A DNA stretch of 64,000 nucleotides, taken from positions 2,815 through 66,814 of the forward strand of contig NJBP01000005.1 of the NCBI GenBank assembly GCA_005223085.1, given 5' to 3'. The notes below the pieces were generated by a model. The model ran no database searches. It had not been told where the DNA came from and saw nothing but the letters and a program-made list of their open reading frames with translations. The position numbers and the translations under genes are program-made. Origin of the DNA: Candidatus Aerophobetes bacterium Ae_b3b (GTDB taxonomy: Bacteria > Aerophobota > Aerophobia > Aerophobales > AE-B3A). Position 1 is the stretch's first letter. Each line of letters starts with the position of its first letter. Positions 21,287 through 58,279 of the stretch are shown one piece after another.

Positions 21287-22000
21287 ATGGATTCTTTTAA
21301 GGATATGAAAAGATTCTTTTCTCTAGTTATAGCAGAAACGGTGCTTTCCCTTCTTTTCCTTATTCCGGCCTCTGGTGAAGCTGGTTTAAATCTAGGAATA
21401 TCCACTGGTTACTACCTTCCCAGTTTTGGGAGAATCAATCAACAATTGGTACGGTATTACAACAATGTCTACGGAACAAATTTGAAACTCAGAGATGGCT
21501 TGGTCTCAGGAGTGCAGGTTGAACTTGAATTTCCCTCGGGATTTAAGATCCGAGTGGAAAACTTCTCTTTCAAAGCAATTACCCAGGACTCTTACAGTGT
21601 TGATTCTGCTCCCTATCGTCAACAAGTTGACCACGACATAAAAGTAACTACTAATCCCTTTTTCATAAGTGGCATCTGGGATGTTTCCTTGGAAGAGAGT
21701 TTCTCTCTTTACCTGGGATGTGGGATTGGGATCTTTCCTACTGACGTGAGACTTTTTGGAACTACTAAATACTACTCTGGTTCTACTCTGGTCAGCCAAG
21801 AATCGTGGGCAGATTGGCAGCGTAGCGACCCTATAGGATTTCAGTATCTAGGCGGATTTCGACATACCTTTAAGGGCGGCTTAACCATATCCGGAGAAAT
21901 GAAGATTTTTGCTGTGGCAATGGCGGAGTTAGATAATCTGTCTACTAGCGTAGACTGGAACGGCCCCCTTTTTTCTCTGGTTGCTAGTTATCGATTCTAG
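21287..22000 (+). CDS. putative outer-membrane beta-barrel protein
   Basis: Signal-like N-terminus, alternating amphipathic strands, aromatic C-terminus '...LVASYRF'. No family recognised. Confidence 0.4.
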   Translation: MDSFKDMKRFFSLVIAETVLSLLFLIPASGEAGLNLGISTGYYLPSFGRINQQLVRYYNNVYGTNLKLRDGLVSGVQVELEFPSGFKIRVENFSFKAITQDSYSVDSAPYRQQVDHDIKVTTNPFFISGIWDVSLEESFSLYLGCGIGIFPTDVRLFGTTKYYSGSTLVSQESWADWQRSDPIGFQYLGGFRHTFKGGLTISGEMKIFAVAMAELDNLSTSVDWNGPLFSLVASYRF

Positions 22001-22108
22001 GGGTCTTCCGAACTGTCTCTTACTGCTCCCATTGAATACGATATTGAATTGAGCTCCACTTGACATGTTATGAGGATAAGATAGGGTGATAACGACAATA
22101 AGAGAAAG

Positions 22109-22672
22109 ATGAGGGTATTTATAGCGGTAGAGATTTCTGACTCCATCAGGAGCACGATAGCTCAGATTCAAGGTAAGCTTAGAGGAACAGAAGATAAAAT
22201 TAAATGGGTGGATCCATCTTTAATTCATCTTACCCTAAAGTTTTTAGGGGAAGTAAGAAAAGAGAGACTGGGAGCGGTAATTGAGGTGGCACAAAAAATA
22301 GCTCCCAAGTTTTCTCCTTTCTTTATGGAAGTTAAAAGAGTGGGTGCTTTTCCTACTTCCTCTTCTCCCAGAGTTATATGGCTGGGAGTGGATAGGGGGA
22401 GCACTAATCTGCAAAGACTAGCTAGCGAGCTGGAAAACCATCTAGCAAAGGATGGGTTTTCTAAAGAAAAGAAGAAGTGGACTCCCCACCTAACTCTCGG
22501 CAGGGTGAAATCGTTAGTAGAACCACAGAAATTAAGTGGTCTTATCTTAGGAGAAAAAGAGGTTGTGGCAGGAGAGATGGAGGTAAAGGAGATCAGCGTA
22601 ATTGAGAGTCGCCTCACTCCCAGTGGACCAATTTATACTGTTTTAGAGCGAATCAGGCTAAAGGGAATGTAG
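22109..22672 (+). CDS. thpR: RNA 2',3'-cyclic phosphodiesterase (2H family, LigT/ThpR)
   Basis: Two HxTx motifs, 'IHLTLKFLG' and 'PHLTLGR'. 187 aa. Confidence 0.85.
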   Translation: MRVFIAVEISDSIRSTIAQIQGKLRGTEDKIKWVDPSLIHLTLKFLGEVRKERLGAVIEVAQKIAPKFSPFFMEVKRVGAFPTSSSPRVIWLGVDRGSTNLQRLASELENHLAKDGFSKEKKKWTPHLTLGRVKSLVEPQKLSGLILGEKEVVAGEMEVKEISVIESRLTPSGPIYTVLERIRLKGM

Positions 22673-22758
22673 GATATAAAAAGTACAAAGTTGAGAGATC
22701 GGACCATTTGCTAAGATTCTGAGACCCTTGAGAGTAGCAGGAAAATATTAGCATTCAG

Positions 22759-22970
22759 GAGATTTATACGCGTATCGAGGGACTTTGCCCGAAGGAGCCT
22801 TATATCAGCCACCTTAACGAGTCTTCGAGTTAAGGAAGAAGAAAGACGTGATGTCTGAGGAGCGGAGCGAGGAGTTTCACGTCTTTCCCGAGACGAGAAG
22901 ACGAGCAGAAACAATCGAAAGTCGATATACAGCGACGAAGGGGAACAGTCCCGAGATATCCTTGAGGAGG
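22759..22970 (+). repeat. structured intergenic element, copy A (abuts the recA start)
   Basis: Aligns with 31961-32218. Conserved hairpin GAAAGACGTGA(22841-22851)/TCACGTCTTTC(22877-22887). The ends TATCGAGGGAC (22773-22783) and GTCCCGAGATA (22948-22958) are complementary. The 3' end supplies GAGGAGG, 6 nt before the recA ATG. Confidence 0.75.
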
Positions 22971-22976
22971 ATAGAT

Positions 22977-24011
22977 ATGAGAGAAGAGAAGATGAAAGCT
23001 CTGGATATAGCCAGGCAGCAGATAGAGCGCCAATTTGGCAAAGGATCACTTATGCGCCTGGGGGAAAGAGCGGCCAGGATGGATGTGGATGTAATTCCCA
23101 CAGGGAATATTGCCGTGGACGCGGCTCTGGGTATAGGAGGGCTTCCCCGGGGAAGAGTAGTGGAGATATTCGGTCCTGAAGGGGGTGGTAAAACTACTCT
23201 GGCTTTGCATGCTGCTGCTGAAGCTCAAAAAATGGATGGAGTAGTTGCTTTTATTGATGCGGAGCACGCCTTAGATCCTACCTATGCAAAAAATTTGGGG
23301 GTGGATATGGAAAACCTTCTCATCTCCCAGCCTGACTCTGGAGAGGAGGCTCTGGAGATAGCTGAACTTTTAGTACGCAGTAATGCCATAGATTTGATTA
23401 TCATAGACTCAGTGGCTGCTCTGGTTCCCCGGGCCGAGCTGGAAGGGGATATGGGTGATTCCCACGTTGGGCTTCAGGCAAGGCTTATGTCTCAAGCACT
23501 TCGTAAGTTAACCGGAGCGATAAGCAATTCTAAGACCTGTACCATCTTTGTCAATCAATTGAGAATGAAGATTGGAGTAATGTTTGGCAATCCAGAGGTA
23601 ACTCCAGGAGGTCGGGCTCTCAAGTTTTATGCCAGCATAAGAATAGATATTCGAAGGAAAGCATCTTTGACCAAGGGGGATGTGCAGATAGGCAACAGAA
23701 CCAAAATCACTGTGGTTAAGAACAAGCTCGCTCCACCTTTCAGGAAAGCTGAATTTGACCTACTTTTTGGAGAGGGGATGTCTCAGGAGGGAAGCATTTT
23801 GGATCTGGGAGAAGATCTTGGCATTCTTAAAAAATCGGGAAGCTGGTATTCTTACGGAGATACCCAATTGGGGCAGGGAAAGGAAAGTGCCCGAGAGTTT
23901 CTTAAGGATGTAAAAAATGCTACTCTGAGGAACGAAATTGAGCAAAAAATTGGGGGAAAATTGGGTTTTATAAGAAAAAAGAAGGAGACGGTTAAGGCTA
24001 AGGTTGAGTAA
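22977..24011 (+). CDS. recA: recombinase RecA
   Basis: '[23 protein letters not shown]', Walker A 'GPEGGGKTT', '[10 protein letters not shown]', 'IIIDSVAAL'. The ATG at 22977 with its GAGGAGG SD is preferred to the 22848 ORF start, which reads through the repeat. Confidence 0.95.
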
Positions 24012-25838: not shown

Positions 25839-25982
25839 ATGAACTCCCGTTCAGAATCAGAAAGTGCAAGAATAGCTGTCTTTGACTCAGGTGTAGGAGG
25901 ACTTACTGTTGTTTCGGAAATAATGAAGCTTCTTCCTGGGGAGGGGAAGAGTCCCGAGATATTTCTTGATTTGGAAGGATAA
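25839..25982 (+). pseudogene. murI: glutamate racemase N-terminal fragment (truncated)
   Basis: 47 codons. 'RIAVFDSGVGGLTVVSEIMKLLPGE' matches the MurI N-terminal active-site region, after which the frame runs into the 19-nt repeat and stops. Full-length MurI is about 260 aa. Confidence 0.7.
25951..25969 (+). repeat. 19-nt dispersed motif GTCCCGAGATATTTCTTGA
   Basis: Exact copy, identical to 35049-35067. Lies at the point where murI similarity ends. Confidence 0.9.
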
Positions 25983-30983: not shown

Positions 30984-31888
30984 CTAGAGGAAATACAAAG
31001 AGGGCCAACACCAAGATCTGGACAGTTAAGAAGAGCCTCAAGTGGGCTACCCGGTATTTGGAAGAAAGAGGAATCGAGAATCCCTGCCTGACCTCGGAAC
31101 TTCTACTGAGTCAACTTTTACAGAAGAAACGTTTCCATCTTTATCTTGACGGGGATCGAGATCTTCCTGGTTCAGTTCGTACCCTTTTCCTAAATTTGGT
31201 CAAAAAGCGTGGTCAATATGTCCCCCTATCTTATCTTACCGGCAGCCAAGATTTCATGGGTTACAGTTTCAAGGTGAATCCGAGGGTCTACATACCCCGT
31301 CCTGAGACCGAGATATTAGTAGAAAAGGTTCTTGAAGTAACTAGTTTGCCAAGAGGAAGAGAATTTATTGCCGTTGATCTGGGAACGGGCTGTGGAAATA
31401 TTGCCATAACTTTAGCCAAGCAATTAGAAAGATCAAGGATCTGGGCGGTCGATATTTCACCCGAGTCTTTGGAAGTCGCCAGATGCAATGCCCAATTGCA
31501 TTATGTGGATAAAAAGGTTGAGTTTTTAAGGGGAGATTTATTTACTCCTCTTATCAGGCTAGGCTTAGAGAGAAGAGTTGATTTAGTAATTTCCAATCCT
31601 CCCTATGTAGCCTCCACTCAGATGAAGAATTTGCCACCTGAGGTAAGAAAAGAACCGAAGGTGGCTCTGGAAGGCGGGGAAGAAGGATTGAGTGTGCATA
31701 GAAGAATTATCTGGCAAGCTCCTCGTTTTTTGAATAGAGGAGGTCTTCTTGCTCTAGAGATTGGATGCGGTCAGGTCAAGATTATAAAGGATTTAATTTC
31801 GGCCCAACCTCAGCTTTTACCTCCTAAGATTGTCTCGGATTACCAAGGAAAGGAACGGGTAGTGCTTACAAGGAAAAGAAGTGATTAG
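30923..31888 (+). CDS. prmC: release-factor glutamine N5-methyltransferase
   Basis: '[11 protein letters not shown]' SAM motif and 'VISNPPYV' (NPPY). The start is uncertain: the TTG at 30923 overlaps ribH by 61 nt, and no canonical start occurs after the ribH stop. Confidence 0.8.
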
Positions 31889-31960
31889 TGGTCAGGGTTT
31901 AATGAAAAACCAAGAGAGTTACCTAAGGCCTTGATTTCTTGATCAATAGTTTCTTTTCTT

Positions 31961-32218
31961 GAGATTTAGGAATTTATACACTTGTCGAAAGACATTTTCT
32001 GGTCCGAAGGAGGCGCAGCCGGAGCCTTATAGGAGCTACCTTAACGAAGCTTCGAGTTGAGGAAAAAGAAAGACGTGATGTCTGAGGAGCAGAGCGACGA
32101 GTTTCACGTCTTTCCCGGCCGTTAAGGTGCCGCAGGCAACGAGAAGCTGAGCAGAAATAATAAAAGGCTACTATACAGCGACGGAAGAAAATTGTCCTGA
32201 GACATTTTTTTGAGGAGT
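31961..32218 (+). repeat. structured intergenic element, copy B (abuts the mrdA start)
   Basis: Same architecture as 22759-22970. Hairpin GAAAGACGTGA(32068-32078)/TCACGTCTTTC(32104-32114). Ends TGTCGAAAGAC (31983-31993) and GTCCTGAGACA (32194-32204). Carries extra sequence around 32117-32140. Confidence 0.75.
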
Positions 32219-32223
32219 AAATT

Positions 32224-33990
32224 TTGGTTCCAGTAAGAGGCAAAAGAAAGAGATTTGAGACAAGGATTAAGATTTTATGGGTTGTCATAGTCTGTAGTTT
32301 TCTCATTCTTCTGGCAAGGATAGCCTGGCTGCAATTAATAGAAGGAGAAAGATATCTTCGTATTTCTAAGAATTCTCGCCTTCAACTCCTTCCTCTTCCT
32401 TGTACCCGAGGTCTCATTTTGGATAGAAATGGTAAGAAGTTAACTCACAATGAGGCCTCATTTTCAGTAGGGGTAATTCCATCCAATGTAAGCAATCCAG
32501 ACCATCTTCTTGATCGTCTAGCTATTATCTTAAAGCTAGATAAAAAGGCTATTCTGGAAAGAATTCGCCGGGCCCCCAATCCTTTTAAACCTGTGGTGTT
32601 GAAAAAAAATGTGGGTATGTCTACCGTGACTTTTCTCCTGGAGAGAGAGGAAGAGTTTCCCGGAGTTGTCATTATTGCCCAACCAGTACGTACTTATCTT
32701 TACGGCGGACTCGCCTCTCATCTTCTTGGTCACCTGGGAGAGGTGAACCAAGCCGAGCTTGCCCTTAGTTCTGGCTATGGCATCGAGTTGGGAGATCTGG
32801 TGGGGAAGATGGGAGTAGAAAAGGTATGCAATAGATATCTACAAGGAGAAAAGGGAGGTAAACAAATAGAAGTAGATGCTCATGGCCGCGCCTTAAGAAC
32901 AATTTCCGAGAAAGATCCTGTCCCAGGTCATAGTCTCTATTTAACCATAGATCTTCGAATGCAGGAGATTGCTGAAAAAGAGTTGGGAGAAAGGAAAGGG
33001 GTGGTATTGATTGGTGATCCATATACCGGAGGGATCTTTGCTTTGGTGAGTTACCCTGGCTTTGATCCAAATCTTTTTTCCTGGGGTATATCAGAAAGTG
33101 AGTGGAATAGATTAAGAGATGAACCTTTGCATCCCCTGGAGAATCGAGCTACCAGGGGAGAATATCCTCTTGGTTCCGCTATTAAAGTCATAACTGCTTC
33201 AGCGGCTCTGGAGGAGGGAATTATTAGCAAGGAGGATACTTTCTTTTGTGGAGGGAATTTTACCATTGGTAACCGGGTGTTTAAGGGATGGAAAGAAGAA
33301 GGTCATGGGGAAATAAATCTGGAAGAGGCTATTATTCATTCCTGCAATGTCTACTTTTATCAACTGGGCTTGCGCCTGGGAGTAAAACGAATAATCCGAT
33401 ACGCTAGTCTCTTTGGTTTAGGGAAGCCCACCGGTATAGATCTTGGGTCTGAGAAGCCAGGGTTTTTACCCACTCGCGATTGGAAGAAGAAACACAAAGG
33501 GGAGGCCTGGTATGGAGGGGACACGGTCAATCTCTCCATTGGACAGGGGTATATCTTAGTTACCCCGGTTCAAATGCTTAAAGTCATCAGCGTTATAGCC
33601 AATGGAGGATATCTGATTAGGCCCTATTTGATAAAGAAAATAGTAAGTCCGAGAGGTGATCTTATTAAGGAATTTCAACCCCCAAAGATGGAAAGAGTTC
33701 CTCTTTCTTCAGCTACACTCAATTTTCTAAGAAGATCCTTAAGGGGCGTAGTGCGGGAAGGGACAGGGTGGCGGGCAGAAAGTAAAACAGTGGAAATTTC
33801 CGGGAAAACCGGTACGGCAGAGCTATCCGAAGGCGAGAAACCCCATAATTGGTTCATAGGCTATGCTTCATCTACTCATCTCCGTCTGGCTATCGTGGTT
33901 TTGGTAGAAAATCGAGAAGAAGATATACAGATTGCTCCCCAGATTGCCGGAAAAATTTTTTCCCAGATCTTCGAAAAAAATGTACCCTGA
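32224..33990 (+). CDS. mrdA: penicillin-binding protein 2 (elongasome transpeptidase)
   Basis: N-terminal TM, 'RGLILDRNGK', 'PLGSAIKV' (SxxK), 'SCN', 'SGKTGTA' (KTG). TTG start. Confidence 0.9.
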   Translation: MVPVRGKRKRFETRIKILWVVIVCSFLILLARIAWLQLIEGERYLRISKNSRLQLLPLPCTRGLILDRNGKKLTHNEASFSVGVIPSNVSNPDHLLDRLAIILKLDKKAILERIRRAPNPFKPVVLKKNVGMSTVTFLLEREEEFPGVVIIAQPVRTYLYGGLASHLLGHLGEVNQAELALSSGYGIELGDLVGKMGVEKVCNRYLQGEKGGKQIEVDAHGRALRTISEKDPVPGHSLYLTIDLRMQEIAEKELGERKGVVLIGDPYTGGIFALVSYPGFDPNLFSWGISESEWNRLRDEPLHPLENRATRGEYPLGSAIKVITASAALEEGIISKEDTFFCGGNFTIGNRVFKGWKEEGHGEINLEEAIIHSCNVYFYQLGLRLGVKRIIRYASLFGLGKPTGIDLGSEKPGFLPTRDWKKKHKGEAWYGGDTVNLSIGQGYILVTPVQMLKVISVIANGGYLIRPYLIKKIVSPRGDLIKEFQPPKMERVPLSSATLNFLRRSLRGVVREGTGWRAESKTVEISGKTGTAELSEGEKPHNWFIGYASSTHLRLAIVVLVENREEDIQIAPQIAGKIFSQIFEKNVP

Positions 33991-35047
33991 TTCTCGACCA
34001 TACGATTGGCTACTTCTATTGGCGGTCTTAGGTCTTTCTCTGGGTGGACTTTTCCACCTTTATACGATTTCTTTTGTTCATCAGTCTTATTATTTTTTTC
34101 GCCAGATAGCCTGGGTGGGGATAGGATTGGGACTGCTAGTTCTATTTTCTTATCTTCGGATCAGTCTATGGGAGAAGGTAGCTCATCTTTTTTATTTGGC
34201 AATTTTTATTACCCTCCTTTTGGTATTATTTAGAGGAGAAGGTGCACATGGTGCACAGAGGTGGTTCAGGCTGGGGACATTTAGTTTCCAGCCCTCTGAG
34301 TTTGCTAAACTCAGCCTCATCATTGTTTTAGCTAAGTTGCTGGCTGCCAAGGATAATATAGGATGGAGACAAATAGGTCTATCTTTTTGTTTTACTTTCC
34401 CTTTCCTTATCTTAGTCGCCCTGCAACCTGATCTGGGAAGTGCTCTCATTTTGCTTCCACTTTGGCTGGGGATGCTCTTTTTGGCCGGTGTCTCTCCGAG
34501 AAAGCTTCTTACCATTCTGGGAATAGGGGCATCTTCCTTTCCATTTTTTTATTTATTGTTACGTCCCTATCAAAAGATGCGTATTCTGACCTTTTTGAAT
34601 CCCGGTCGAGATCCTCTTGGCACAGGGTGGGCCGTCCTACAGTCTAAGGTTGCTCTAGGTTCAGGAAAATTAGTAGGCAAAGGTATTGGAGGAGCTCTTC
34701 ATACCCAACTCAGTTTTCTTCCTCAACCCTTTACGGATTTTGTATTCGCCAGCATTGGTGAAGAGTGGGGATTTGTTGGAACAGGGATTTTTATAGGACT
34801 GTATTTTGTCATTATAACTAGAGGCATGAAGATAGCTAGACAATCTACCAATGGTTTTACCAGGCTGGTAAGTGGTGGTCTGATCATTCTATTATTTTTC
34901 CAGGTTTTTATTACCGTGGGAATGACGATAGGGATCATGCCTGTTACCGGTATGCCTTTACCTCTGGTGAGCTATGGGGGAAGTTCTATTATAATGTTTT
35001 TTCTGGGGATGGGATTATTGCTCAGTATGAAGAGATTCGGGGAATAG
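33980..35047 (+). CDS. rodA: SEDS-family peptidoglycan glycosyltransferase RodA
   Basis: 'FSFQPSEFAKL', 'QPDLGSALI', 'LPQPFTDFVFASIGEEWGF', 'MPLPLVSYGGSS'. ATG at 33980 overlaps the mrdA stop. Confidence 0.9.
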   Translation: MYPDSRPYDWLLLLAVLGLSLGGLFHLYTISFVHQSYYFFRQIAWVGIGLGLLVLFSYLRISLWEKVAHLFYLAIFITLLLVLFRGEGAHGAQRWFRLGTFSFQPSEFAKLSLIIVLAKLLAAKDNIGWRQIGLSFCFTFPFLILVALQPDLGSALILLPLWLGMLFLAGVSPRKLLTILGIGASSFPFFYLLLRPYQKMRILTFLNPGRDPLGTGWAVLQSKVALGSGKLVGKGIGGALHTQLSFLPQPFTDFVFASIGEEWGFVGTGIFIGLYFVIITRGMKIARQSTNGFTRLVSGGLIILLFFQVFITVGMTIGIMPVTGMPLPLVSYGGSSIIMFFLGMGLLLSMKRFGE

Positions 35048-35048
35048 A

Positions 35049-35067
35049 GTCCCGAGATATTTCTTGA
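35049..35067 (+). repeat. 19-nt dispersed motif GTCCCGAGATATTTCTTGA
   Basis: Exact copy starting 2 nt after the rodA stop. Its TTGA forms part of the TTGACA -35 box. Confidence 0.9.
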
Positions 35068-35091
35068 CAGTTTTATATCCTTCTGTATATT
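35064..35091 (+). promoter_or_regulatory. sigma70-like promoter (TTGACA-16-TATATT)
   Basis: TTGACA 35064-35069 and TATATT 35086-35091, about 190 nt upstream of the leuC start. Confidence 0.45.
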
Positions 35092-35186
35092 GAATGCACC
35101 TGAGGTATAGAATTTCAATAATTTCTCTGAATTGTTATCAAGTAAACCTTGGCAATCGAGATATCAGAAAAAAAAGAGGGGAGCAG

Positions 35187-35281
35187 GCTCGACTTGCTCG
35201 AGCGAAGCGAGAGTCGGCTTTGCCGATCGAGCCGTCGAGGGGGGATATTTCCCCCCTCGAGTATCTTGGTGGGGGATGGGA
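35187..35281 (+). promoter_or_regulatory. hairpin-rich 5' leader of leuC with a possible SD-sequestering switch
   Basis: Hairpins GCTCGA/TCGAGC (35187-35203) and TCGGC-TTT-GCCGA (about 35213-35227). A further 11-bp stem TCGAGGGGGGA/TCCCCCCTCGA (35235-35260, loop TATT). The C6 tract could alternatively pair with the G-rich SD at 35268-35280. Confidence 0.4.
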
Positions 35282-45325: not shown

Positions 45326-45684
45326 TGGTGGAGGCGGAGGGAATCGAACCCTCGTCCAGAGACAAAACCATCGGAACATCTACATATTTAGTCTACATTT
45401 TGAATTCATCTTTCCTCCCTCCTGTAGACGAGATGAAGGAAAGACTAGCAGCTCTCGAGTATTCGCTTTGTTTCCCATCTGCCTGGAAACAAAGCTAGCT
45501 CTACTTTCTCACGCCTCTTTTACTCCGTAGAGCAAAAGTAAGGAGACGTAGCTACTTAGTTGTAGCTAAAAGCTAACGTTGGATTAGCGTTTAAGTTTAG
45601 TTGCCGGATGGATTTACAAGGTGTCCGGCGACCCTTGCTATGCCATTCCGATTTTTCTATCCCTGTCGAAACCGTTTCGCCCCC
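45326..45684 (-). ncRNA. ssrA: transfer-messenger RNA (tmRNA, SsrA)
   Basis: The reverse complement starts GGGGGCGAAACGGTTTCGACAGGGATAG and ends GGACGAGGGTTCGATTCCCTCCGCCTCCACCA. The acceptor stem has G3:U, and a T-arm is present. It lies 11 nt downstream of smpB. Candidate tag ORF GCT AAT CCA ACG TTA GCT TTT AGC TAC AAC TAA. Confidence 0.9.
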
Positions 45685-50397: not shown

Positions 50398-50415
50398 GAC
50401 TATGACTTCGTTAGA

Positions 50416-50434
50416 GTCCCGAGATACTTCTTGA
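50416..50434 (+). repeat. 19-nt dispersed motif (GTCCCGAGATACTTCTTGA, 1 mismatch)
   Basis: Intergenic, between two ABC operons. Inverted partner at 57310-57328. Confidence 0.85.
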
Positions 50435-57309: not shown

Positions 57310-57328
57310 TCAAGAAATATCTCGGGAC
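57310..57328 (-). repeat. 19-nt dispersed motif, reverse orientation (exact)
   Basis: The plus strand reads TCAAGAAATATCTCGGGAC. Directly abuts the TTG start of the PfkB-family gene. Confidence 0.9.
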
Positions 57329-58279
57329 TTGAATATGCTGGATTTAATAGTGGTGGGAAATTTATCCTATGATGCTATATCGACGCCCAACGGCCGTCGA
57401 AAAGCGGCTTTTGGTGGTTCGGTTGCCTATGCCAGTCTTTGTGCCAGCTACCTTGGTGAGCGAGTGGGTGTGGTAGCTAAGGCTGGCAAAGATTATCACC
57501 TTAAAGATTTGGATAGACTTGTGCGTCGGGACATCGATATTGAGGGAGTAAAGATAGTTTCCCTCGGTCTCACCACTAGATTTGAGAATGTGTATGATGA
57601 GAATGAAAGTAGAAAACAGAGATTGTTAGGCAGAGGCGATCCCATATTTCCTGAGGATGTACCGGATGGGTATCTGAATGTGGATAAGGTATGTTTTTTG
57701 CCAATCTTTCAGGAGTTACCTTGCCAAACGGTGGAAAAGCTTACCAAAAATGGAAAATGTGTCTGCCTGGATCCCCAAGGTTATATCAGGACAACCGGCA
57801 AGGCCGGAGAAATAGTACTGACCGATTGGAAAGAAAAAGAAAAGATTCTTAGAAAAGTGGATATCCTAAGCACAAGTGCTCCGGAACTAAATGCTGTTGC
57901 AGCCACAGCTGATGCTTTAAGTGCCGCTGAAAAACTGAGCAGTCTTGGTCCAGAAATAGTATTTATTACTAGAGAAGGGGGATCAAAGAGTTCTTTGCTC
58001 TATTTTGATGAGAGGTTGGAGGAGGTGCCGATTATCCCTCCCCAGGTTTTTGTGGATCCCGGAGGGGTAGGGGATGCTTCAGCGGTTGCTTTTCTGGTGG
58101 AATATGAAAAAACACACGATCCCTGGTGGTCAGCTTTCTTTGCCTCAGCAGCCTCCTCTTTTGTTATGGAAGCCTACGGAGCCGATAGTTTTGGGAACAG
58201 AGACCAAATTTTAACCAGAATAAAGATTTTTGTCAGTCATAATCGACAGTACCGGGGTTTATGCCAGGGTTTTCTCTAA
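57329..58279 (+). CDS. PfkB/ribokinase-family carbohydrate kinase
   Basis: 'DLIVVGNLSYDAI', 'GGSVAYAS', 'DPGGVGDA'. The start is either TTG 57329 or ATG 57335. Confidence 0.7.
   Translation: MNMLDLIVVGNLSYDAISTPNGRRKAAFGGSVAYASLCASYLGERVGVVAKAGKDYHLKDLDRLVRRDIDIEGVKIVSLGLTTRFENVYDENESRKQRLLGRGDPIFPEDVPDGYLNVDKVCFLPIFQELPCQTVEKLTKNGKCVCLDPQGYIRTTGKAGEIVLTDWKEKEKILRKVDILSTSAPELNAVAATADALSAAEKLSSLGPEIVFITREGGSKSSLLYFDERLEEVPIIPPQVFVDPGGVGDASAVAFLVEYEKTHDPWWSAFFASAASSFVMEAYGADSFGNRDQILTRIKIFVSHNRQYRGLCQGFL

Follow-up and report, generated by a model that had tools for sequence, protein, structure and literature searches.

Two similar sequences that precede recA and mrdA in a Candidatus Aerophobetes genome are very likely copies of a lineage-specific interspersed repeat, non-autonomous, orientation-specific, structured and mobile. 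They lie in a stretch of 64,000 nucleotides from Candidatus Aerophobetes bacterium Ae_b3b (assembly GCA_005223085.1, contig NJBP01000005.1, positions 2,815 to 66,814 of the forward strand), referred to below as the window, and are termed copy A (before recA, window 22977–24008, whose product is identical to TKJ46011.1) and copy B (before mrdA). An initial annotation of this DNA had aligned 22759–22970 with 31961–32218 over their whole length, and this alignment was reproduced, end to end and with 79% identity over a slightly wider stretch, copy B differing from copy A by two added blocks of 17 and 19–21 nt. The coordinates proposed at that time were correct as far as they went; the complete unit is longer, and reaches a CTTGA on its left and a CTTGA or TTTGA on its right. 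For a 23-mer containing the 5′ arm of the central hairpin, the window has exactly two occurrences, against 0 expected in shuffled sequence.

Copy number and occupancy of the repeat

Further copies were searched for with an 18-mer from the central hairpin, in metagenome loci and in a one-genome-per-species collection; related contigs and loci compared with the window are designated by L-numbers (L001 etc.). The 18-mer matched one genome, an Aerophobetes metagenome-assembled genome (MAG), and 44 metagenome loci, yielding about 32 true copies that carried the other conserved blocks. A profile search with nhmmer brought in L016, which is a recombinant copy, L017, which has an internal deletion, and short solo 3′ ends. 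Many copies sit at contig ends, as repeats do. Three patterns searched in viral contigs gave no true copies, and nothing relevant was found in the literature on repeats in Aerophobetes. The MAG match (L007, JAUWXE010000106.1) lies on a contig whose name gives a coverage of 722x.

The unit measures approximately 235–330 bp and contains no open reading frame (ORF). Its core, from TTTATAC to ...CCCGAGA, is exactly 194 nt long in most copies and is preceded by 12–45 nt. Protein coding was considered and rejected: starting from a GTG at 22848, copy A shares the reading frame of recA, but this frame is lost in other copies through indels of 17, 19 and 85 nt, and the long antisense ORFs are due to the purine-rich plus strand. 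The genes downstream are unrelated to each other, and include yicC, ligT, recA, mrdA, genes of the aspartyl-tRNA synthetase and MiaA tRNA isopentenyltransferase types, a Mur ligase gene, and genes for archease, MotA/ExbB, a B12-binding protein, solute-binding proteins and a winged-helix regulator. At all loci but L049 the downstream gene is on the strand of the element.

Occupancy of these sites differed between strains. Six contigs encode a 100% identical RecA, and wherever they reached upstream, the ligT–recA gap was 12 bp and held no copy A, with the ligT stop codon overlapping the recA ribosome-binding site. Copy A was absent from L001–L006, L010 and L021, the flanks of which were near-identical; around 290 nt of the window (22668–22958) were missing from the empty contigs with an identical RecA. 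The longest of these, L001, also lacked copy B, some 330 nt being missing there before mrdA. The ends of the preceding genes differ as well. LigT ends in ...KGM in the window (22661–22672, stop codon included) and in ...KGN in the empty strains (L001 3655–3666), and PrmC, which ends in ...TRKRSD in the window (31870–31888), has about 30 more codons in L001 (11975–12067), overlapping the mrdA start. Contigs L010, L021 and L002 have no copy A, but do have a full element between a methylase gene and ligT. In its place the window (21287–22000, plus strand), L001 and L034 contain an ORF of 237 aa, for which no Pfam match was found, so the neighborhood has been rearranged around copies of the element.

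The yicC locus was found in three states. Empty sites in L056, L057 and L058 carry a single CTTGA (...GGAGTC CTTGA CAGGG...TATAAT), in L054 and L055 two CTTGA enclose a remnant of 40 nt, and L007, L014, L024 and L037 carry the full element. The gene upstream of yicC is epimerase-like, as judged by eye, in L007 and HPPK in L014 and L024, the breakpoint coinciding with the 5′ end of the element.

Immediately upstream of copy A, a segment that begins like the 5′ region of the element ends with TTCTGAGAC, a B-type-like 3′ end, followed by a C and the CTTGA that opens copy A; the letters before this CTTGA read CTGAGAC. This segment belongs to the roughly 290 nt that the empty strains lack. It is the sole match in the compared sequence to the junction pattern "3′ end – core – 5′ region", and is otherwise unique. 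Its arrangement suggests a decayed older copy, in which case copy A would be a second insertion, in tandem, into a regenerated site. Upstream of copy B (31930–31962), three CTTGA motifs occur within 35 nt, CCTTGATTTCTTGATCAATAGTTTCTTTTCTTGA, and may have been left behind by earlier insertions at this site.

A conserved branched fold

Fold statistics were obtained from 26 distinct copies. The RNAalifold consensus consists of a helix P1 of about 18 bp joining both ends of the core, with an invariant tandem G.A, a helix P2, hairpins P3 and P4 and a small P5, and shows 11 covarying pairs. Several of its parts had already been described from copies A and B in the initial annotation, and were recovered here: the identical 11-bp stem GAAAGACGTGA/TCACGTCTTTC at 22841–22887 and 32068–32114, the second hairpin (CCTTAAC...GTTAAGG in A, with GTTGAGG as its 3′ arm in B), and the complementary ends (TATCGAGGGAC/GTCCCGAGATA in A and TGTCGAAAGAC/GTCCTGAGACA in B). 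The two double changes noticed in the terminal helix (A:T to G:C and G:C to A:T) are real, and the tandem G.A/A.G of this helix is invariant across both copies; a G:C to A.C mismatch in the terminal helix of copy B had been overlooked.

Selection on structure, which had been put forward from two copies, was supported by the larger sample. With the pseudoknot described below in place of P5, twelve pairs were changed on both sides, compared to 3.5 ± 1.5 in shuffles (0/500) and at most three in controls with slid partners. Covariation thus lies above all shuffles and all slid controls. Within P1, 8 of the 14 pairs presented both-sided changes. Its outermost pairs underwent independent compensatory double changes in L049, L026, L031 and the B-type, which favors base pairing over a pair of protein-binding repeats. 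The P3 loop GUCUUC can pair with a GAAGAC located after P4, and in B-type copies the corresponding sequences are AGCUUC and GAAGCU, equivalent to two compensatory pairs. When this likely pseudoknot was substituted for P5, 97.3% of the cells in the alignment were paired. Read on the plus strand, the fold contains majority G.U pairs. Folding stability relative to shuffles gave z = −3.1 for copy A and −1.8 for copy B, and the z-scores quoted for the family fold range from −3.1 to −4.7.

In agreement with the earlier failure to recognize a known RNA family, comparison of the window with Rfam 15 at the gathering threshold detected tmRNA only, and copies A, B, L040 and L037, module-bearing ones among them, searched at E ≤ 10 produced either nothing or chance matches to miRNA and snoRNA families far below threshold. 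The tmRNA gene lies at window 45326–45684 on the minus strand (RF00023, 184 bits, full length). A hammerhead core was also looked for by eye and discarded; a CUGAGGA is present, but there is neither GAAA nor a proper stem II.

Junctions, remnants and modules

Junctions were analyzed at 23 distinct loci. CTTGA bounds the unit on both sides. On the left, similarity among A-type copies starts at a CTTGAT about 45 nt before TTTATAC, and among B-type copies (window copy B, L026, L028 and L031) about 12 nt before it. On the right, a few variable pyrimidine-rich nucleotides follow ...GAGAT and precede (C)TTGA; these 3–6 nt differ among copies. A YTTG was found after the right end in most loci, and a TTGA within 14 nt of it in 15 of the 23. 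Conservation of the target is limited to YTTGAY, and the left CTTGA(T) is better conserved than the right CTTGA. No enrichment of targets resembling the 3′ end of the element was detected upstream of the left cores.

At 11 of the 23 loci, the TTGA of the right junction opens the −35 hexamer of a sigma-70-type promoter of the form TTGAC-N16-TAnnnT, against a background of 7% for any TTGA (p = 1.2 × 10−7), the spacer to TAnnnT being 16 nt long at 10 of these loci and 18 nt at one. The remaining copies, A and B among them, have a ribosome-binding site and a start codon within 10–25 nt. The promoter at the right junction is host DNA, as the ligT promoter is present in the window without a full element and the yicC promoter in the empty L056, L057 and L058. 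At ligT, L010, L021 and L002 have a full element ending in ...CCCGAGATCTA CTTGACATG, and L001 and L034 read GAGATCCA CTTGACATG. A terminator scan gave nothing within the element.

Table 1. Window coordinates of copies A and B, of their parts and of degenerate or partial copies
Feature	Position	Strand	Remarks
Copy A (A-type), whole unit	22727..22965	+	Present at orthologous locus L034
Copy A, left junction CTTGA	22727–22731	+	Followed by 5′ region of about 30 nt
Copy A, core, 194 nt	22763–22956	+	
Copy A, P1 5′ strand TATCGAGGGACTTTGCCC	22773..22790	+	Partner 22940–22958; RNAalifold consensus
Copy A, P3 hairpin CCTTAAC...GTTAAGG	22812..22835	+	
Copy A, pseudoknot, P3 loop GTCTTC with GAAGAC	22821–22826 with 22897–22902	+	Possible pairing
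Copy A, P4 central hairpin	22841..22887	+	Invariant 11-bp stem, purine-rich 25-nt interior
Copy A, P1 3′ strand GGGGAACAGTCCCGAGATA	22940..22958	+	Followed by pyrimidine-rich linker and right CTTGA
Copy A, right junction CTTGA	22961–22965	+	Overlaps recA Shine-Dalgarno sequence
recA Shine-Dalgarno GAGGAGG	22964–22970		ATG at 22977
Copy B (B-type), short 5′ region GATTTAGGAA	31958..32213	+	
Copy B, left CTTGA	31958–31962	+	
Copy B, core	31973–32202	+	
Copy B, optional modules (n = 2)	32001–32020 and 32117–32137	+	
Copy B, right TTTGA	32209–32213	+	Immediately before mrdA Shine-Dalgarno sequence
mrdA Shine-Dalgarno GAGGAG	32212–32217		TTG start at 32224
Putative degenerate older copy upstream of A	22668..22726	+	Starts AGGATATAAAAAGTAC, resembling element 5′ region
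Degenerate 3′ remnant GAGCTCCA + CTTGA	22033..22063	+	CTTGA is the −35 box of the ligT promoter (TTGACA-N16-TAGGGT)
Solo 3′ end GGAGGGGAAGAGTCCCGAGATATTTCTTGA	25940..25969	+	Before Vut_1-family gene; nhmmer, model positions 183–211
Solo 3′ end GGGAATAGAGTCCCGAGATATTTCTTGAC	35040..35068	+	Overlaps rodA stop; TTGACA, 16 nt, TATATT
Solo 3′ end AGAGTCCCGAGATACTTCTTGA	50413..50434	+	Intergenic
Solo 3′ end AGTCCCGAGATATTTCTTGA	57310..57329	−	Sole copy or remnant in the window on this strand

Five solo or degenerate 3′ ends lie in the window outside copies A and B and the segment next to A (Table 1), and the one before the Vut_1-family gene is kept in L001, L002 and L034. Either selection for the adjoining −35 box or polar copying would suffice to account for such remnants. 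Copies of the family decay by internal deletion. The 40-nt footprint at yicC (L054 2440–2480, and the start of L055) consists of the 5′ region plus the last 8 nt of the element. Missing from it is precisely the stretch bounded by the two GAGAT direct repeats on either side of the 194-nt core; this could represent a slippage deletion or the sign of a second recombination site.

Some copies carry optional modules, which are located at two junctions and at the tips of P3 and P4. One of about 19 nt (GGCCGUAAGGUGCCGUAGGC and variants) was found at three positions. Another of about 85 nt, with a G-rich hairpin, is situated at the P3 tip, where in L008 it folds as an extension of P3, and inside P4 in L037. 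A second small repeat, about 100 nt long and standing alone, is a relative of the 85-nt module; it contains a perfect G-rich hairpin GAGGGGGGATATTTCCCCCCTC and is 97% identical between the window (35161–35270) and L049 (12295–12393), and in the window it lies within the 5′ region of the gene after rodA. The yicC copies in L014 and L024 have identical flanks and cores that differ at 6 positions and by two modules, indicating that copies have been overwritten by other variants. Conservation of orthologous copies, compared as a sign of purifying selection in place, was mixed: the core is 97.9% identical between L013 and L041, compared with 87–94% downstream, and other pairs presented no extra conservation.

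Spread of the repeat and alternative explanations

With the help of an enzyme provided in trans, the mobile repeat would integrate into YTTGA motifs. As a CTTGA is left at both junctions, the host promoter would be rebuilt at the right junction and the insertion tolerated. The fold would be read single-stranded, most likely as a plus-strand transcript, since the copies adjacent to ribosome-binding sites must lie in an mRNA leader and the modules extend helices as they do in structured RNAs. From this position, the element would constitute an acquired 5′ leader of about 240 nt for recA and mrdA, rather than a dedicated sensor, and would break the former tight coupling of these genes to ligT and prmC.

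A number of observations weigh against this proposal. No transposase or recombinase was found in the examined loci, so the case for mobility is a comparative one: no DEDD recombinase or Y2 transposase was seen there, and an all-against-all comparison of ORFs of at least 120 aa from all loci (about 350 kb) revealed no repeated partner ORF. The left and right flanks showed no covariation beyond the shared CTTGA, resembling each other no more within a copy than between copies (permutation p = 0.18), and a 5-bp target duplication therefore looks the same as a left CTTG brought by the element with a CTTG of the host beside it. Compared with the empty alleles, sites A and B differ by more than a simple insertion; they contain an additional 58–65 nt, with no match elsewhere in the compared sequence, and the core of the empty sites is ATTAA/TTTAA rather than CTTGA. 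Most of the covariation derives from two or three subfamilies. One-sided changes to G.U outnumber those to A.C (16 versus 10 cells) without reaching significance, which leaves a fold in RNA or in plus-strand single-stranded DNA short of proof. Finally, a simple promoter scan made no call within the element, the spacer in the A-type 5′ region being 14–15 nt, and the B-type copies lack the 5′ region that carries the promoter-like motif.

A decayed IS630-family transposase, split into a helix-turn-helix ORF and, after it, a distinct DDE ORF, is present in L011 (5814–6863) about 200 nt downstream of a copy. It was discarded as the mobilizer, its inverted repeats being unrelated to the ends of the element. 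Palindrome-associated elements derived from IS200/IS605 have hairpins near both ends, a target motif solely 5′ of the left end and an orientation tied to replication; an element of this type was likewise discarded, given that the motif is found at both junctions and no hairpins lie close to the ends. TTGAT is the target of the insertion sequence (IS) ISDra2.

An unlikely alternative, although the least so of those considered, is that the copies are genes for a trans-acting small RNA (sRNA) of about 200 nt, with its own promoter (CTTGAT as −35 and TAGTAT as −10) and a terminator-like end, the RNA itself being what functions. In A-type copies CTTGAT-N14/15-TAGTAT does stand some 10 nt ahead of the conserved leader, UAUUUCUU comes after P1 (U7 in the B-type), and some copies between divergent genes (L029 and L040) cannot be read through from upstream. 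The greater conservation of the copy relative to its flanks in L013/L041 would also fit a gene, but the other orthologous pairs do not repeat it. Apart from the suboptimal and uncalled promoter, missing from the B-type, no terminator was detected and P1 encloses about 160 nt; moreover, dozens of copies accompanied by many decayed ones suit a selfish repeat better. The 5′ start of such an sRNA could be near GAUUUAUAC.

Somewhat less credible is a miniature rolling-circle element of the IS91/ISCR type, mobilized by an HUH enzyme, in which the left CTTG would be the termination site and the right CTTG the host target; the solo 3′ ends would then be abortive copies and the folded strand the single-stranded DNA intermediate. 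IS91 elements produce no target duplication, have two different ends and insert beside 5′-CTTG or 5′-GTTC, and several members are cleaved, at their other end, at a tetranucleotide identical to the target (PMC13181058). About 170 bp of the ends are enough for transposition, and a single-stranded circle is the active intermediate (PMC13181058). The Aerophobetes element resembles IS91 elements and their minimal ori/ter derivatives (PMC13181058) in that CTTG stands beside one end while the other has an identical or similar tetranucleotide, and a single-stranded intermediate would explain a strand-specific fold. The better conserved left CTTGA(T), the host origin of the right one, the unlike ends with no demonstrable duplication, the different left-end lengths of A- and B-types and the frequent truncated copies in the window that keep only the right end all point in the same direction. 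On the other hand, no HUH (Y2) transposase was found in the examined loci, and near-end palindromes like those of IS91 (PMC13181058) are absent: no local hairpin exists within about 40 nt of either end, and the ends pair with each other instead. The variable 3–6 nt linker before the right CTTG is unlike a precise origin end, and strict co-orientation with genes needs an extra explanation. We know of no IS91-derived miniature elements of this form.

The initial annotation had also considered a MITE (miniature inverted-repeat transposable element) whose terminal inverted repeats fold as single-stranded DNA. That the sequence is dispersed, gene-less and strain-variable held true; its details as a classical MITE did not, and we regard as improbable an element moved by a DDE transposase, with P1 as the terminal inverted repeats and CTTGA as a 5-bp target-site duplication. 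Size, lack of ORF, copy number and filled or empty sites would all fit, as would the 18–19-bp inverted repeat (TGTC...GACA in the B-type), the near-end 8-mer TCTCAGGA/TCCCGAGA that resembles an inverted repeat, and the CTTGA found twice in L054 versus once in the empty L056. However, P1 lies 12–45 nt inside the left boundary and 5–9 nt inside the right one, and its outermost pairs repeatedly covary as base pairs, unlike two sites for one protein. No TA and no copy-specific target duplication was found, the left and right cores differ in many copies with no correlation between them, and no IS with matching ends was found in the examined loci.

Quite improbable is an ORF-less derivative of the IS110/IS1111 type, for which the structured RNA would act as bridge or seek RNA and CTTGA as the recombination core. 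IS110 elements have no terminal inverted repeats, present a short core at both junctions with a promoter spanning it, and carry within a non-coding end the gene for a structured RNA, about 180 nt long (PMC11208160). CTTGA is indeed present at both junctions, and a −35-like TTGAT spans the left core. The core-adjacent sequence, however, varies on both the element and the host sides while the loops are invariant, so that the loops cannot read 4–7 nt on each side. In addition, the target is conserved only as YTTGAY, no DEDD recombinase was seen in the examined loci, and the RNA continues to the extreme right end, in contrast to IS110, in which it lies in the left one. If the repeat used one of these specific routes, we would rank IS91-like rolling circle first and IS110-like core recombination second.

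The weakest explanation is the one first proposed, a cis-regulatory leader (riboswitch-like, or a protein or sRNA site) co-regulating recA and mrdA, which we consider extremely improbable despite the conserved fold and the fact that both copies end 5–10 nt before the Shine-Dalgarno sequence and so must be in the mRNA, because strains in which RecA is identical and the flanks are near-identical lack both of them, some 30 unrelated genes have the same sequence in front of them, roughly one copy in two precedes a promoter belonging to the gene itself and hence lies outside its mRNA, and decayed and recombinant copies persist.

Among known systems, ERIC, YPAL and Correia, which are structured intergenic repeats, come closest to the mobile repeat. 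Like ERIC/IRU, YPAL/RU-2, Correia/NEMIS and RUP, the Aerophobetes element is a small multi-copy unit without genes whose sites are filled in some strains and empty in others, and it shares with them long and stable stem-loops in the predicted transcript, size variants due to indels and possible co-transcription with neighboring genes (PMC2229807). As in YPAL, the inverted repeats are internal rather than terminal and there are no TA ends (PMC2229807). In contrast to the single long hairpin of ERIC, YPAL and Correia, it is longer and branched, with five helices plus the pseudoknot, and it differs from them in the absence of TA ends or terminal repeats, the fixed orientation, the placement of CTTGA on the −35 box and the modules at helix tips (PMC2229807). 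Another relative is ssr9, a stand-alone sRNA module of Pseudomonas putida mobilized by the transposase of ISPpu9, a member of the IS110 family (PMC12288879). Like the element as proposed here, ssr9 is a small structured-RNA gene with stand-alone copies that spreads as a selfish module through an enzyme encoded elsewhere; for ssr9, unlike the present element, the transposase is known, circles have been detected and REP sequences are the targets (PMC12288879), whereas here the target is CTTGA at the −35 box and a reading of the flanks by the loops does not agree with the data. Putative mobile promoters also place highly similar 5′ regions before non-homologous genes within a genome; the element described here is instead mainly a structured 194-nt domain, and the host promoter is kept at the junction, not replaced (PMC3575422).

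A more speculative and unlikely extension is that the conserved branched RNA or single-stranded DNA actively takes part in its own integration at the promoter −35 hexamer, together with a recombinase or HUH enzyme; the solo 3′ ends would then be abortive products of a polar copying step. Recruitment of some copies by the host, as promoter-proximal insulators or leader RNAs, is a possibility.

These results remove a shared recA/mrdA riboregulator as a false lead and add a repeat family for a phylum without cultured members. The element breaks assemblies, rearranges gene neighborhoods and alters the ends of genes such as those for LigT and PrmC, and gene pairs that were tightly coupled acquire a structured spacer of about 300 nt between them. 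If the placement at −35 boxes reflects a true choice of target, it would allow selfish insertion beside essential genes without killing the host, and would provide a handle for finding the enzyme. The branched covarying fold with its modular extensions is far more elaborate than those of known bacterial intergenic repeats and could represent a new class of structured RNA, one of high interest if the fold takes part in integration or was recruited by the host.

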